Positions 48,058 through 53,792 of a DNA stretch of 64,000 nucleotides are shown here, in pieces. The number at the start of each line of letters is the position of its first letter. The first letter of the stretch is position 1. This DNA is from a virus. The notes below the pieces were generated by a model. It did no database searches and was not told the DNA's origin. It saw nothing but the letters and a program-made list of their open reading frames with translations. The stretch covers positions 1 through 64,000 of IMG/VR virus record IMGVR_UViG_3300050343_000230; one strand, written 5' to 3'. The position numbers and the translations under genes are program-made.

Positions 48058-48993
48058 TTACTGGGAGGTAGCGAAAGGAGCGAAGACCCCTGATGGGAAA
48101 CGCTCATCATATGAATGATCTCTATCCCACGCTGCTTTCCATTCAGACAGCGAATGGTTAGGAGGAATCGTATTATACCAATTCTCTGTTGCATCTAAAT
48201 TAATCTTGCTACCCTCATTTGGCGCTTCTAAATCAGGACCAATGACCCACGTTAAAGGGTTTTTTGTCACAGTATTTTCAAAATTTACTTGCACAAAAAT
48301 TCCTGATGCAATCTCCGAAAATACAGGTGTATAAGCACTTAGTTCATTAAGCGTGACAGTTTGCGTAACTACCTGAGGGATTTCCAGGAACCCTGCACTG
48401 CTGTTTCCAAAATCTTCTTGCAACATATAAGCAACAAGAAAATCTTCAGTCATAATAAAGTTTTCTTCAATCTCTGAAAACTCAACAACTAAACCAACTC
48501 CATACTGGAATAGTTCATTGCGTGTAGCAGACACGCAGAACATGTACTCACCTGGAACAAGGTCGTAAAATAATTCGTCGCCCTTGTTATAAGCTTTTGG
48601 ATCATATGTATTGTATAAATCTGACTGACCACCTGCTACATCACCCTTGTAGGCACGGGGTTCTTGATGAATAACCCGACTTTCAATCGGGTTTTTATTC
48701 ATGTCATAGAAAGCAATCTCAAAACGAGTGGAGGTATCACTAAACCGATTGGTAGGTACGTAGTTACTAGTAGCTAATTTAGTGCCTGCTTTAATAGCAA
48801 TTATGCAAGCATCATCTAATAGTGTAAGTTTGAACCAGTTGTTATAAGTGTCATTGCCATACCCCCCTTGAATGATCTGACTTTTTGGTCCAAGCGTTCC
48901 TGTAAGAAGACGCAAGGATGTGCGATCAAAACGACCTAGGTTAAGGGGATTAAATTGTGATCGCTCCCTTTGAGGTACGCTCGGGTTCGTCAT
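48058..48993 (-). CDS. Hypothetical beta-rich protein
   Basis: 311-aa ORF. Confidence 0.7.
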   Translation of the reverse strand: MTNPSVPQRERSQFNPLNLGRFDRTSLRLLTGTLGPKSQIIQGGYGNDTYNNWFKLTLLDDACIIAIKAGTKLATSNYVPTNRFSDTSTRFEIAFYDMNKNPIESRVIHQEPRAYKGDVAGGQSDLYNTYDPKAYNKGDELFYDLVPGEYMFCVSATRNELFQYGVGLVVEFSEIEENFIMTEDFLVAYMLQEDFGNSSAGFLEIPQVVTQTVTLNELSAYTPVFSEIASGIFVQVNFENTVTKNPLTWVIGPDLEAPNEGSKINLDATENWYNTIPPNHSLSEWKAAWDRDHSYDERFPSGVFAPFATSQ

Positions 48994-49690
48994 CTATATC
49001 TTGCCGAGTCTGCGTATTGCTTTCTATTTTAGGATCTCTAATTGTTGGCCTATACAACTGTTTTAATAGGTAATCAATTGTCTGTCCTTTGCTTTGACGC
49101 AAAGCCATGATGGCATGTTTCTGCGGATCCCAATCCAGGGACAAGTATTGGAATGAAACTGGCCTGCGCTTAGCAGAAGAATTAAAGCTGGAGGTTGTAT
49201 GTAAAGGATTTACACAGCTTTCATCACCACAAAGATTGGCTGCTGTTGTTACGTACATCCTGCCCACGTCACCCCAGAAGGCTTGGTAAATAATTTTCTT
49301 TGTCTGCACACGGTCAGTAAGACGACCAGTGTTGTGGCTTCTCCAAGAGGGATAAGACGGTGCTTTAAAACTTTTACGCACATGCCAGCAACCTTCGTGA
49401 GGTGCCTCTGGATTATCCATCACCACGTTTTTCATCACCCTAGTAAGGATGTTCTGGTAATCTCTGTGGATAAAGTTCAGATCAAGACCACAAACGTTGG
49501 ATTCGATCTTCAAAGCGCAGTGATAACACCAGTGTCTTTCTGAGTCTCGTATGCGATGACCGAGATGGCAGGGAAAACCAAGGTAGAAACCTTGCTCTTC
49601 AAGGGAACCATTGGGATCTAGGTAACGAAAACTCCTGTCAATCACTGCTTTCTTGCCTCTGATGCCCTTCCTGTCATCAACATTGGCCAT
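48950..49690 (-). CDS. Zn-finger plus degenerate HNH (His-Me finger) protein
   Basis: PCHLGH...WCYHC N-terminal Zn site; CW...YQAFWG...CGDESCVNPLH, lacking the usual catalytic His before the Cys pair. Confidence 0.6.
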   Translation of the reverse strand: MANVDDRKGIRGKKAVIDRSFRYLDPNGSLEEQGFYLGFPCHLGHRIRDSERHWCYHCALKIESNVCGLDLNFIHRDYQNILTRVMKNVVMDNPEAPHEGCWHVRKSFKAPSYPSWRSHNTGRLTDRVQTKKIIYQAFWGDVGRMYVTTAANLCGDESCVNPLHTTSSFNSSAKRRPVSFQYLSLDWDPQKHAIMALRQSKGQTIDYLLKQLYRPTIRDPKIESNTQTRQDIDDEPERTSKGAITI

Positions 49691-49701
49691 AGTTCAAGCA
49701 A

Positions 49702-49883
49702 AGTTGAGGAGTTGAGGGTCCAATACTAACTCTTTTATTCTATGCAGTGTCATTTTAGCCCGACATTTTAGCCGTAACTTTAGCCCTCAGACAGCGCAGG
49801 CCCAAAATCGCGGCCAAAGTTGCAGGCCAAAATGACACTACATACATGAAGGGAGTAGGAATGAACCCCTCAACTTCTGAACT
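49702..49883. repeat. Long imperfect inverted repeat containing six iteron-like motifs
   Basis: 85-bp arms 49702-49786 and 49799-49883, 59/85 identical without gaps (hand count); three TTTAGCC units on the left, three inverted G(G/C)CCAAA units on the right. Confidence 0.85.
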
Positions 49884-49927
49884 CCAACCGTCGCATTTGA
49901 ATCTCAGACTGAGACTGGTTAGCCATT

Positions 49928-49946
49928 AAAAAAGCCCCGAAGGGCT
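49928..49946 (-). terminator. Rho-independent terminator of the primase/glycosyltransferase operon
   Basis: AGCCC-TTCG-GGGCT followed by T-run on the - strand. Confidence 0.85.
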
Positions 49947-49951
49947 GGTGG

Positions 49952-51208
49952 TCAGTCAGCCACGCCTACTGGTTCAAGCTTCTTTCCACCCTTGCGGCGA
50001 CGGCGTACCTTGGGGCGGGGGGGCTCGATCTCTTTCAGGGTCTCAGCAAAGACTTCCTCGAACTGGTAAGCGACGGTATCCCACTGGTACTTGGTATCCG
50101 TGGCACGTTCATAGCAAGCCTTGCCAACCTCTTCAAGCTTCTCGCGATTCTCATATAAGTCGCAAAGGATCTCACAGAGATGCTCGGCGCTAGGCACCGG
50201 CATATCACGGTTGTAGTTCATGTCCACATCAATGAAGCAGTTATCGATCAATGGTGCGGCACCTTCAAAGATCTCCTTGAGACTCGTGTGATTAGGCACC
50301 ACCTGGGCGATGCCACAGGCGGCGGACTCATGGTTGACTAACCCGTGTCCCTCACCTTTACAAGTATTTACCGAGACATCGGCCGTGTTGTAGATAAGAT
50401 TCAGTAACTCAACAGGGACTGAAGGCGGATGCGGAGACTGAGCAGTCATGACGATCCTGCCATTGGGATCCAGCCCACGCTTGAGCATCTCCCTGGAGAA
50501 CAGGGGCATGATGTCCCACCCTTGATCTTTCAATCCCATGTGAAGATACAGCTTGGTATCTGGTCGGCCAACGGCGAACTGAGCAAAAGCATCAATCGTG
50601 ATATCGATGCGCTTACGTCCTTGGTTCCGATTTCCATTGAAAACAATGAAGCCCTCCTCGGGAATGCCGAGTTTTTTCCTCGCTTCCTTCTTATTGACAG
50701 AGAAGAACTGTCCGTCAGTGACGCCGTGGGGGATTACAGTCACAGGCTTTTGGATTCCTGCGGCCATAAGTTCGTAAGCCCCGAAGTCTGTGTAGACAAC
50801 AATGTTGTCCCAGGCATTGGCGTGGTCTTTCAAGCAGCCCGTCCAGCCGTAGCTGTCCATCGGCATGTAAGCAATGAACTTAAAGTGCTTTGCTTCATGC
50901 AGATCCTTGATCTTGGCATAGATCGCATTGACGATCCACGCATCATTATTGATAAAAATCAGATCGGGTTTTTCCTTCTCAACGATCTCGCGGACACGAA
51001 GAGTACCGAAGGGCTCCGTTTGGAAACGGTTGGATGAGGGATACATCTTGAAGTCCTTCTGGAATTCATTTGGATCACCCCACCAGTTATTACCCAATAC
51101 AACGATCTCATATTTATCTTTCAATCGTGTAATCAAATTTTCTGTTACACGAGCAAAGCCAGTACGAGCAACGATGTCACCTGACCATAGGATCTTCGGC
51201 TTCGACAT
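49952..51208 (-). CDS. Glycosyltransferase family 4 (GT-B)
   Basis: TGFARV, IPHGV, NRNQGRKRID, GEGHGL...E..ACG motifs; start placed at MSKPKILW. Confidence 0.88.
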   Translation of the reverse strand: MSKPKILWSGDIVARTGFARVTENLITRLKDKYEIVVLGNNWWGDPNEFQKDFKMYPSSNRFQTEPFGTLRVREIVEKEKPDLIFINNDAWIVNAIYAKIKDLHEAKHFKFIAYMPMDSYGWTGCLKDHANAWDNIVVYTDFGAYELMAAGIQKPVTVIPHGVTDGQFFSVNKKEARKKLGIPEEGFIVFNGNRNQGRKRIDITIDAFAQFAVGRPDTKLYLHMGLKDQGWDIMPLFSREMLKRGLDPNGRIVMTAQSPHPPSVPVELLNLIYNTADVSVNTCKGEGHGLVNHESAACGIAQVVPNHTSLKEIFEGAAPLIDNCFIDVDMNYNRDMPVPSAEHLCEILCDLYENREKLEEVGKACYERATDTKYQWDTVAYQFEEVFAETLKEIEPPRPKVRRRRKGGKKLEPVGVAD

Positions 51209-53792
51209 TAGTATTCTTAACCTTATGTTCGAGCTGTATGTTACCGTAAAAATCACGGTACTTGTTAACATCCTGGGCTAAATCAATCAGGGAAGGATAA
51301 CCAGAATCAGTTTCATAGCTACGGATTCTAATGTTGAACAGCTGAATAGTTCGCTGATTCCCCTTGTAAACATTGAGGTTTAGCTGATGGTTGAGGATAT
51401 CCATGAGCATGTTTTCAAACCGTGCTCGTGACATCATATTCACATTGTTGTTACGGCAAAACTCACCGTAGTTGGCATAGAGCCTTGTCTCTGCGTAGTG
51501 ATAATAAGTACGAGCATCCTTAGCAGCAGGCTTGCAATCACCGATGTAGGACATGCAGTTGTTGTCGAACACGATGTTGGTATGCAGCCAGTCCATGATT
51601 GGATTGGATCGGATGTGTTGTTGCGTCGTGAATTTCTGGAAATAAGCAACCCGCTCTTGGGTTTGTAGCAGATAGCTACGCATGTCCTCTTCTGACATTT
51701 GCAGTACCCAGTTGACCAGTCCTGGCATATAAGGAGCAAACTCTCCAGATGTGGTATGGCGATCACAATTAATCAGAACCCTTTGCTGCTTTGCATTACC
51801 AGTGAAGGGACGATCAAAAGGAATTGTTAAGCGACGACGAAACAAGCCAGAGCTTGGGTCAGTAGTTTGGATCTGTTCGTTGGCTGTGATCATGATCAAG
51901 CCATCAAATTTAAATGTTGATTCTGTCTGCTTGTACTTGTGCTCACAGTTGATCAAGTCAGTACCCGTCAGGGCTTTGAGCATTGAAACGTTGCCGCCGT
52001 AACGCTCAACATCATTGAATAGCAGAAGCTTTTTATTAACAAGTTTGGAGGTTTCAAATCTGTTTTTCTCAAGCCGTTCCATGGTTGAGACTGCTGCATT
52101 GTCGAAACCAACCAGTGCATGACAGAGGTTTGCGAAAGTTGACTTACCGGATTTACCGGGTCCGACAATCTCAACAAAGCGTTGGATACTATCTGCGCTA
52201 GTAAGTACAGCCCTTAACCATGCACGAAGGAGTTGCACTCGCTCCCAATCATTGTGCTGTGTAAATTTCAGCCAGCGAACAATAGGTTCGCAGGTTGCGC
52301 TTGAGTCATACTCATAAGGCAATGAACGGTTGATGTAGTTTTCTTTCTTAAAGCCCTCAATCTCCTCTGTTGCAGTATTGAAAATGCCATTACGGAACAG
52401 GATCAACTCTTTATTAATGTTCCATTCAGAATTCTGCAGTGACTGAGACAACAAAATATACTGATCATTGATGGTGGAAACACCAAAACCCCTTGGCAGT
52501 AGTTCGTTTTTGATACGACTGAGCATGGAGTACAGCTCATGTTTCATCTCAGCTTCTGAAACCCCACTCCACAAACCCCATGCTTCACGTTCATAGATAT
52601 AGAACTGGTTTGAAGCAGGATCAAAGAGCAACTTACCGGCAAACATCTGGGTCAAAATGTCACACAGTTCGTTCGCTGGCGCATTTCGTTTTTTATTCAT
52701 CTCATTACCATCGGCATCGCCATCGAACTGCCGAGACTTTGGGAAGGTTTGCACCCTATTAAATGTGATTTCATCAGGTACTTCGGGTTCAGAATCCAAC
52801 ATTGCTTTCAACATGTCGCTTAGTGCCTCTATTGATTCATCGGCTACCGGCATTGCCCGGTATTCCTGAGATGGCTTGAAGCCATACTGTTTTGCATTGT
52901 GATATAAGGTGCCAGCTGTGATACCACCACCAGAAGAAAATGACCGCCACTTTTGATGGCAGGCACCATTCCTATATTTTTCAGACTGCTTAGACCATTC
53001 ATCCCACTCATCACAGAGTGCTTCATCAACTGAATGCAAGGCTTGACCTGCGGTCAGCCATGCGTCGTAATCATCAGCACATTCGGGAGGCAAAGTCCAT
53101 AATGCTTTGACTGCTTCTTTAACTTCAAAGTCATGGCCTAGTTTTGCATTGATAGCAAAGGATTCGCCATACATACGCGAATGCGTTTCGTTTGGCTTAC
53201 CTTGCTTCATATTCTTCAGTACAATGCCAGCAAGAATCCAATCAGGAATCTCAGGCAATTCTTTAGAAAAAGTGAAGTCCTCTTGCTCTTTCGTGAAGTA
53301 GCCCTCAGTATCCGGGTGCATACCCATGAGGACGCCTTGGCACCGCTTCCAAAGTATTTCAAGTTTCTCGCCATCCCCTTCTGCATGCCAGGCATATTTA
53401 TTACGGATGAACTTATCCCAATTGTTTTTGGAAACACGGTAGAGCTTACGCTCTCTACCCTCTCTGCCACTACAGATTGTCAGGGTTGGAGGGAGTGCTT
53501 CGTTGAGGGGCAATCCACTTTCTTTTTTAATAAGTTCGTAAACAGTAGGGCCATCGATGTCAATCCAGACCAAACCATAGGGCTCGTTGTAAACAGGCCC
53601 ACCAATAAGACCAACAGCTTTGGCACGTCCTTCTTCTAGTTCTTTCCCAACATCTTCTACTGCGTATGGTTTGTTTTGCCAGCCCTGGATGTAAGGGTTT
53701 TTTCTATCACCAATCGGGGTAAGAGGCCAGTCAAGAGGGATTAAGCCAAGATTAATTTCGCCGGGTTTTAATGCTGAAGACATTTGATTCAC
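51177..53792 (-). CDS. Primase-helicase (prim-pol + PriCT-2 + D5-like SF3 helicase)
   Basis: WPLTP...K.P...GWQ and DIDG prim-pol motifs; DYD.W...G.ALH...WDEWS..S.KY PriCT-2; Walker A GPGKSGKS; LKALTG.D....E.KYK; RR...IPF. Confidence 0.9.
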   Translation of the reverse strand: MNQMSSALKPGEINLGLIPLDWPLTPIGDRKNPYIQGWQNKPYAVEDVGKELEEGRAKAVGLIGGPVYNEPYGLVWIDIDGPTVYELIKKESGLPLNEALPPTLTICSGREGRERKLYRVSKNNWDKFIRNKYAWHAEGDGEKLEILWKRCQGVLMGMHPDTEGYFTKEQEDFTFSKELPEIPDWILAGIVLKNMKQGKPNETHSRMYGESFAINAKLGHDFEVKEAVKALWTLPPECADDYDAWLTAGQALHSVDEALCDEWDEWSKQSEKYRNGACHQKWRSFSSGGGITAGTLYHNAKQYGFKPSQEYRAMPVADESIEALSDMLKAMLDSEPEVPDEITFNRVQTFPKSRQFDGDADGNEMNKKRNAPANELCDILTQMFAGKLLFDPASNQFYIYEREAWGLWSGVSEAEMKHELYSMLSRIKNELLPRGFGVSTINDQYILLSQSLQNSEWNINKELILFRNGIFNTATEEIEGFKKENYINRSLPYEYDSSATCEPIVRWLKFTQHNDWERVQLLRAWLRAVLTSADSIQRFVEIVGPGKSGKSTFANLCHALVGFDNAAVSTMERLEKNRFETSKLVNKKLLLFNDVERYGGNVSMLKALTGTDLINCEHKYKQTESTFKFDGLIMITANEQIQTTDPSSGLFRRRLTIPFDRPFTGNAKQQRVLINCDRHTTSGEFAPYMPGLVNWVLQMSEEDMRSYLLQTQERVAYFQKFTTQQHIRSNPIMDWLHTNIVFDNNCMSYIGDCKPAAKDARTYYHYAETRLYANYGEFCRNNNVNMMSRARFENMLMDILNHQLNLNVYKGNQRTIQLFNIRIRSYETDSGYPSLIDLAQDVNKYRDFYGNIQLEHKVKNTNVEAEDPMVR

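Follow-up and report, generated by a model that had tools for sequence, protein, structure and literature searches.

In initiator-iteron systems, of which lambda O and SPP1 G38P are examples, the known initiators are winged-helix or helix-turn-helix proteins; the direct repeats that they read are in helical phase and adjoin a clear A+T-rich unwinding element. Plasmid Rep/iteron replicons have been reviewed (PMC4980987), and the origins of Staphylococcus aureus pathogenicity islands (SaPIs) carry two opposed sets of short repeats near the gene of a superfamily 3 (SF3)-type primase-helicase (PMC9371898). Here, we describe a 182-bp palindrome (positions 49702-49883) in IMG/VR virus record IMGVR_UViG_3300050343_000230, a genome of 77.5 kb rated 98% complete, of which the first 64 kb (64,000 nucleotides; the window) were analyzed. 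The palindrome lies directly before a gene that we call orfA. It is unique in its genome, its position and architecture are conserved in relatives, and its repeats covary with a hypervariable loop of the orfA product. We suggest that the palindrome is a replication origin of the phage and at the same time mediates autoregulation of orfA, a reading to which we assign a probability of roughly 0.4. That the palindrome is an array of duplex iterons bound by orfA is, on the sequence comparisons below, probable.

The palindrome is by far the strongest inverted repeat of the 77.5-kb genome, beyond chance: its local inverted-repeat score is 27.2, that of the second-best among 308 windows across the whole genome is 12.7, and the median is 9.2. 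Its arms pair at 61 of 91 positions without gaps around a center at 49792.5. A preliminary description of the locus, made from the DNA letters alone, had reported 59 of 85 paired positions over somewhat differently delimited arms; our recount gave the same result, and every coordinate and motif position in that description was correct on rereading. The window holds the three exact iteron copies at this site only, and the AGTTGAGG box is found at 49702 and 49710 on the plus strand and at 49868 on the minus strand. The features of the palindrome and its surroundings are as follows.

49702-49718: outer boxes (motif II) on the orfA side, AGTTGAGG AGTTGAGGG, 12 nt upstream of the orfA ATG
49736-49741, minus strand: -10-like hexamer TAGAAT, then AAAAGAGTTAG, 46 nt before the orfA ATG and 4 nt past the last iteron
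49751-49785: three iterons (motif I) of the arm adjoining orfA, 12- to 13-nt spacing, CATTTTAGCC at 49751 and 49764 and AACTTTAGCC at 49776
49786-49798: G+C-rich center of symmetry, CTCAGACAGCGCA
49799-49834: three iterons (motif I) of the orfA-distal arm, 13-nt spacing, GGCCMAAAnT type, GGCCCAAAAT at 49799, GGCCAAAGTT at 49812 and GGCCAAAATG at 49825
49868-49885: outer boxes (motif II) on the far side, two copies, CCTCAACT and a degenerate CTGAACTCC, the mirror of the boxes at 49702-49718
49902-49914: small dyad TCTCAGaCTGAGA, kept in loci L164-166, which belong to the window's subgroup
48950-49690, minus strand: orfA, 246 aa, putative iteron binder

Like the Pri-Rep origins of SaPIs and phage-inducible chromosomal islands, the locus has two opposite iteron sets (3+3 here), lies near a primase-helicase gene, and shows element-specific specificity. 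SaPI iterons, however, are 5 to 6 nt long, whereas those of the palindrome measure 12 to 13 bp, and the SaPI center is A+T-rich, whereas the center here (CTCAGACAGCGCA) is G+C-rich and the spacers of large relatives are G-rich. A SaPI origin directly follows rep, but here a 439-aa glycosyltransferase gene and a terminator intervene; SaPI iterons are read by the C-terminal winged helix of the helicase, but the iterons of the palindrome track the separate protein orfA. The analogy to SaPI and P4 origins drawn in the preliminary description therefore fails on the three points that we tested, namely, center composition, position behind the helicase gene, and specificity set by the helicase C terminus. 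A model with a separate initiator, as in Rep/iteron and lambda O systems, fits the main repeats better than a helicase that reads its own sites.

As in initiator-iteron replicons, the gene adjoins an array of what would be its own sites (12 nt from palindrome to orfA ATG), a promoter is overlapped, and specificity pairs diverge. The locus departs from those replicons in the I-PpoI-like fold of the protein, in the inverted sets within one palindrome, in the 12- to 13-bp spacing, and in having no clear unwinding element. Herpes simplex virus oriL and oriS resemble the palindrome in being large palindromic origins with inverted initiator sites and a promoter-bearing intergenic region; they differ in their A+T-rich center, their superfamily 2 helicase initiator UL9, and their eukaryotic setting. 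In parC/ParR of plasmid R1, two iteron sets flank or embed the promoter of the binding protein's operon, as they would here, but those repeats are direct and serve plasmid partition, whereas the repeats of the palindrome are inverted and no partition ATPase is present.

In a nucleotide search against phage GenBank, only one sequence matched (65% identity), and it was the glycosyltransferase of Synechococcus phage S-EIV1 (S-EIVl), so the source of the window is an uncultured marine member of the S-EIV1 cyanophage lineage. Because a blastn search of the intergenic DNA against 80 relatives gave no match, conservation was sought by architecture instead. Loci (L numbers) were collected through the glycosyltransferase and then through orfA in viral and metagenome contigs. 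An inverted repeat scoring at least 17 lies within 760 nt upstream of orfA in 88 of 113 distinct loci, compared with 0 of 113 control stretches of neighboring coding DNA (maximum, 14.2). The comparison of the same intergenic position among related phages, which the preliminary description had proposed, thus supports conservation. The order of primase, glycosyltransferase, a gap of ~300 nt, orfA, and the next gene, orfB, is maintained in the loci found through the glycosyltransferase, and the element accompanies the orfA operon also in loci in which a small open reading frame (ORF) or a divergent gene alters the neighborhood.

Repeat sequences vary by lineage and the architecture is retained. 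The gaps of relatives fold into analogous hairpins, in which three copies of CCCAAATGGTACG, GTCGCCCAAAACT, or CCAAAAAGGTACA stand opposite degenerate complements; some relatives have 2+2 repeats with a spacer of ~115 nt, and spacers reach ~200 nt. Locus L200 has 200-nt arms (165 of 198 positions paired) with four 21- to 22-bp iterons, AAAAGTGACAAAACTGTAG, per arm and a 185-nt G-rich spacer, and L186, L183, and L202 have arms of 160 to 210 nt. The arms are 67 to 85% complementary along their whole length, beyond the repeats alone, and in some relatives they are more A+T-rich. In S-EIV1, a 400-bp stretch of the same locus holds the equivalent repeat CTTACATATCC three times exactly and once as a near copy, and a single one-mismatch match lies elsewhere in 79 kb. 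The outer 8-bp boxes read AGTTGAGG in the window, AGGGCGGA in the L004 group, and TGCAGAC in L200. On these comparisons, the element is a conserved, lineage-wide, putatively cis-acting site.

To identify the protein that tracks the iterons, we compared loci that differ in repeat type; a first screen of pairs gave only one informative pair, and a metagenome scan was added. Loci L008 and L011 are 96 to 99% identical from the primase gene to beyond orfB, save in the hairpin (76 to 85%) and in the first two-thirds of orfA (75 to 92%). In these two regions, L008 resembles L006, a locus of the same iteron type. The primase-helicases of L008 and L011 differ only at residues 71 to 464 (of ~870), yet the iterons differ; because no difference lies beyond residue 464, the helicase C terminus cannot set the iteron type.

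Among 13 distinct loci of the L004 group, orfA is highly conserved outside a 12-residue stretch flanked by CWPI and PKR (the loop), and the class of the loop tracks the iteron core in 12 of the 13.

Loop ..YREYKT: iteron core CAAAA(C/A)TGTC, five loci
Loop ..YRKYDT: iteron core CAAAAAGGTAC, two loci
Loop ..YRGIxx: iteron core C(C/T)AAATGGTAC, two loci
Loop ..H(V/L)xxNV: iteron core CAATAA(C/T)GT, three loci
Loop ..NLNASV (L190): iteron core of the YREYKT class, one locus

Three genomes are mosaics in which the repeat type and the orfA loop switch ancestry together and the DNA between them does not. Counted as informative sites (L092-like:L090-like), L193 has an L092-like background in the glycosyltransferase flank (71:8), the C terminus (25:5), and orfB (154:9), and is L090-like in the hairpin (13:21) and the loop codons (9:35); the ~350 nt between hairpin and loop are L092-like (8:2 and 18:8 in a comparison with L194). 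In L180, the hairpin (2:26) and the loop (2:29) are L091-like, and the promoter and first codons between them are L089-like (13:5). L089 shows the same mosaic pattern relative to L091 and L090. Linkage alone hardly accounts for two separate patches that change ancestry together while the interval between them does not, which suggests that the repeat type and the hypervariable loop form a functional pair. The proposal in the preliminary description that the adjacent degenerate HNH-like protein might act at the palindrome gains from this co-switching, which makes orfA the best candidate binder. In L164-166, all six iterons have changed in concert, from GGC to GAC in one arm and from GCC to GTC in the other. 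Recombination is patchy around the locus.

Some results speak against the pairing of loop and repeat. L190 breaks the rule, its ..NLNASV loop going with a core of the YREYKT class. In Mantel tests of whole 13-mer iterons against the loop, neither the naive version (r = 0.12, P = 0.14) nor the partial version was significant; the association is restricted to the iteron core and to the mosaics in the site patterns.

The orfA protein of the window has no match in Pfam and a weak "endonuclease" match in PHROGs. Some of its relatives match zf-His_Me_endon and HNH_3 weakly; the best E values were 0.00089 for PF05551 (in 3 of 11 orfA members) and 0.0035 for HNH_3 (in 1 of 11). A profile of the family, compared with all PDB sequences, matched I-PpoI only (E ~0.2), aligned to I-PpoI residues 91 to 112, precisely over the zinc motif. 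This motif, C-x4-C-x-NPLH, is present in orfA, where C154, C159, N161, P162, L163, and H164 are invariant. The catalytic general-base histidine (His98 of I-PpoI) is not conserved in the orfA family, the corresponding stretch being AANLC in the window and SRR-C in the L004 group. We propose, from these sequence features, that orfA derives from I-PpoI-like, homing-endonuclease-type proteins; the gene is syntenic and apparently vertically kept, not sporadic.

When an AlphaFold model of orfA (mean predicted local distance difference test score, 76) was compared with 48,161 representative chains, only three reached a Z score of at least 2: the DNA-binding domain of NFIC (4.5), the MH1 domain of Smad4 (4.1), and I-PpoI (2.7). 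Foldseek likewise placed NFI and Smad on top, at E values of 0.4 or worse. All three matches are His-Me-finger-type folds, NFI being one that we take to belong with them. MH1 and I-PpoI have been placed in the His-Me finger superfamily, and MH1 is described as a degraded nuclease that retained DNA binding (PMC5714182). Like orfA, Smad MH1 and NFI are without the catalytic histidine and keep the zinc ligands (PMC5714182; PDB 5nm9 and 9xvd). In the solved entries, these domains are bound to short motifs that contain G/C, TGGCA in the case of NFI, and the window iterons contain TTGGC. Because the fold matches are all of the His-Me type and MH1 is a nuclease-dead DNA binder, orfA is best read, on the model, as a nuclease-dead, sequence-specific duplex-DNA-binding protein. 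A coarse interpolation of the aligned ranges would put its hypervariable loop near the DNA-contacting sheet of I-PpoI. Against this assignment stands the weakness of every fold match (Z < 5). In the published classification, moreover, the MH1 and I-PpoI groups hold eukaryotic sequences only, whereas orfA is a cyanophage protein of weak similarity (Z, 4.1 to 4.5), and no membership of orfA in MH1/NFI was found at the sequence level (PMC5714182 for the classification).

We propose the following mechanism. The palindrome would be a duplex cis element composed of two inverted sets of three 12- to 13-bp iterons and 2+2 outer boxes, and the orfA product, presumably derived from a homing endonuclease and without its catalytic histidine, would bind the iterons, with the hypervariable loop setting the iteron sequence that is recognized. 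Like plasmid Rep proteins, bound orfA would also control its own transcription through the -10 box of the proximal arm, and the orfA-iteron complex would mark the start site for the primase-helicase and the family-A DNA polymerase, both of which the phage encodes itself. Binding by orfA and autoregulation are inferred, and origin activity and helicase recruitment even more so. If these steps hold, orfA would be a replication initiator.

What points to an origin is the mirror arm, which lies behind a terminator without a promoter to serve, together with the large arrays, the border with the replication module, and the SaPI-like opposed iteron sets. Several observations weigh against it. GC skew, in which the preliminary description had proposed to look for an inflection, follows gene orientation and shows none at the palindrome. 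The center at 49786-49798 is G+C-rich, no clear unwinding element is present, and the only A+T-rich stretch (49720-45, 26 bp) is modest, with 69% A+T versus ~57% genome-wide (hand count). The iteron spacing of 12 to 13 bp in the window and the L004 group is out of helical phase (it is 21 to 22 bp in L200). Finally, an embedded promoter and sites restricted to one locus would fit a purely autoregulatory operator equally well. Under that explanation, orfA would be a transcription factor that binds the iterons to repress or activate the only promoter of the operon to which it belongs, cooperativity or looping would be the role of the far arm and outer boxes, and the origin would lie elsewhere. 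Because a -10-like box, overlooked in the preliminary description, sits inside the arm, we treat this as a serious rival, somewhat less probable than an origin. A CTAkAATAArAGAGT block after the orfA-proximal arm is common to the window, the L004 group, and L164-166 and is kept where the iterons differ. TAnAAT occurs on the sense strand of the proximal arm in 29 of 85 palindromes versus 8 of 85 at the mirror position, a count that is a rough guide, some window-group matches falling within the iterons themselves (CTAAAAT). In S-EIV1, one extra repeat copy overlaps a TATAAT directly before the orfA ATG. A scan of 49300-50300 for two-hexamer sigma-70 promoters found none, and the -10-like box has no -35 element. 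The fold relatives Smad MH1 and NFI are transcription factors, a regulator with a single target can drift freely with its site, and the element follows the orfA operon through changes of neighborhood. Several points speak against an operator alone: the far arm follows directly on a terminator and has no promoter beside it but is kept as a mirror image family-wide; arrays of up to 4+4 iterons and arms of up to 200 nt exceed usual operators; and the element sits at the edge of the replication module. The iterons stand where an upstream promoter element would be, so that, whichever reading holds, the orfA operon is likely to be autoregulated.

The remaining alternatives concern the nature of the site itself. 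The palindrome could act as a long hairpin, either in RNA (a read-through product or 5' leader of the orfA operon, such as a processing or stability element) or in single-stranded DNA as a priming signal, which we regard as improbable. The arms are complementary beyond the repeats, and the predicted RNA fold is stronger for the minus strand (-99.3 kcal/mol, z = -8.05) than for the plus strand (-80.6 kcal/mol). The preliminary description held that mismatches do not favor G-U pairing on one strand, but in the window arms wobble-type mismatches number 10 on the minus strand versus 6 on the plus strand (~8 versus 2 in the iteron part, as read from the alignment). Two further observations count against duplex sites: in the window and its close relatives, which conserve a wobble-compatible G/A difference between the arms, three G.U positions on the sense strand, one per iteron pair, are kept in all four, with the neighboring pair switched from C-G to U-A, and RNA-library contigs from three studies bridge the terminator, the palindrome, and the orfA 5' end without a break (49541-49947). 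These contigs place a close relative of the phage in those samples and make transcription through the palindrome possible, but they carry no strand, end, or level information, and DNA carry-over could account for them. Two of them have an identical variant sequence beyond 49947. Across 84 distinct palindromes (L084-L243), the wobble bias runs the other way, with 216 such mismatches on the orfA-sense strand versus 337 on the antisense strand, and 18 of 25 decided clusters favor the antisense strand (P ~0.04). This contrast between the family and the window may reflect mutational strand asymmetry or structural constraint. An Rfam search of the palindrome returned one match at chance level only (E = 0.77). 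Periodic repeats, 200-nt arms, and 90- to 200-nt spacers are neither needed by nor typical of RNA hairpins, the -10 box within the arm would start transcripts inside the hairpin, and the palindrome covaries with a protein whose fold relatives bind duplex DNA. The internal periodicity (12 to 13 bp, or 21 to 22 bp in L200), the long arms and spacers of relatives, the covariation with orfA, the Rfam result, and the inconsistent wobble bias thus argue for symmetric protein sites on duplex DNA, as the preliminary description had concluded. Less probable still is a site for another DNA transaction (recombination, homing, or packaging) in which orfA would retain activity through other residues. T4 endonuclease VII cuts cruciforms. 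This enzyme is a His-Me finger protein too (PMC5714182), and the proposed descent of orfA from homing-endonuclease-type proteins and the patchy recombination around the locus would suit such a role; the general-base histidine, however, is absent throughout the orfA family, the gene is inherited in a syntenic, apparently vertical manner, the terminase lies 38 kb away, and no recombinase adjoins. Only the palindromic form would suggest a chance repeat or a mobile element of the kind considered in the preliminary description, a miniature inverted-repeat transposable element with target-site duplication. We rejected this explanation as exceedingly improbable, contradicted as it is by the single copy in the genome, the fixed syntenic position in diverged relatives, and the covariation with the neighboring gene.

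Initiators or regulators with cognate iterons are a known kind of system, from which the protein fold and the palindromic layout would distinguish this one. We speculate, tentatively, that an I-PpoI-type homing endonuclease was domesticated in a widespread cyanophage lineage and now serves as a nuclease-dead, sequence-specific, origin-binding initiator, whose short hypervariable loop and palindromic iteron array form a matched and coevolving specificity pair. NFI also acts at the adenovirus origin, and a domesticated initiator would, if true, be a bacterial-virus parallel to the eukaryotic MH1 and NFI domains. The S-EIV1 lineage is common in marine and freshwater metagenomes, and we found no paper on its replication origin or early control region. 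The locus offers a concrete candidate, a unique cis element next to a protein of unusual fold, and its natural variants already hint at the pairing of individual loops with the DNA sequences that they would read; because S-EIV1 is cultured, experiments are feasible. If confirmed, the system would provide phage biology with a new initiator or regulator fold, a compact natural case in which to follow the diversification of a protein-DNA specificity pair, and a sequence marker with which these phages could be sorted into replicon or regulon types.

The genes around the palindrome all lie on the minus strand, and the palindrome marks the point where the replication-gene arm ends and the next minus-strand operon begins. 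The upstream arm ends as follows.

49927-49946, minus strand: intrinsic terminator closing the glycosyltransferase/replication-gene arm, stem AGCCC-TTCG-GGGCT (49946-49933), then a T run
49952-51271, minus strand: GT4-family glycosyltransferase, 439 aa, final gene of the upstream arm
51177-53792, minus strand: primase-helicase with Prim-Pol, PriCT_2, D5_N, and DUF5906 P-loop domains and a weak C-terminal Pox_D5 match

A family-A DNA polymerase (PolA) is encoded further up the same arm, at ~65.9 to 66.9 kb. The preliminary description had placed the palindrome downstream of the primase-helicase operon and behind a terminator. The arm does adjoin and the terminator was found, but the glycosyltransferase gene and this terminator intervene between helicase gene and palindrome. 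The terminator is kept in L164-166, and the L004 group has an analogous one. Downstream of orfA lie orfB, a 311-aa ORF, and then a phrog_3704 protein; the operon as listed consists of orfA, orfB, a CP12-like small ORF, and the phrog_3704 protein. A search of the ESM Atlas with orfB matched viral clusters without names only. The glycosyltransferase ORF as listed overlaps the primase-helicase ORF by 95 nt (51177-51271); in relatives, the two genes are free of overlap and the alignment of the glycosyltransferase sets in only at about residue 20, which makes a true start further downstream probable.

The end of the helicase (51177-51500, residues ~760 to 871) holds a conserved block, LYANYxEFC...MSRSRFE...NHQLNLNVY, with the weak Pox_D5 match at residues 768 to 812. 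Within the L004 group, whose outer boxes (AGGGCGGA) do not vary, this block is 84 to 100% identical. The outer boxes might be sites for this conserved C-terminal domain, a comparison that is confounded by phylogeny.

A TGAGAC/GTCTCA dyad (e.g., ATGAGACTCAT) occupies the exact center of many relatives' palindromes (L106, L120, L134, and L153). Dyads of this type lie downstream of the hairpin in the L004 group, and the related dyad of the window, TCTCAGTCTGAGA, is outside the palindrome, between it and the terminator. In the largest palindromes, the central spacer (L200:1513-1697, L186:521-612, and L202:2605-2781) is G-rich and includes stretches of 6 to 8 G. Between the glycosyltransferase stop codon and the terminator, L009 (5282-5390) and L012 (5278-5320) have three to four direct 11-nt repeats, CCAGACAACTG, and an inverted copy, which differ in type and position from the main palindrome. 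In distant relatives (L106, L105, L115, L134, L144, L158, and others), the palindrome and orfA are separated by a 100- to 135-aa ORF that is absent from the window group and the L004 group. Many metagenome contigs (loci L172, L189, L198, L224, L230, L238, and L242) start 10 to 350 nt before the orfA match, at the place of the expected palindrome or within it, and these starts are probably assembly breaks at the inverted repeat, not physical DNA ends. In S-EIV1 (L003, KJ410740; 5069-5332 and 4634-5074), two tiny plus-strand ORFs, AHV82136 and AHV82137, are annotated near the palindrome, where the orfA homologue reads through on the opposite strand; its start is apparently ~230 nt upstream of the annotated one, at an ATG just after the TATAAT box.

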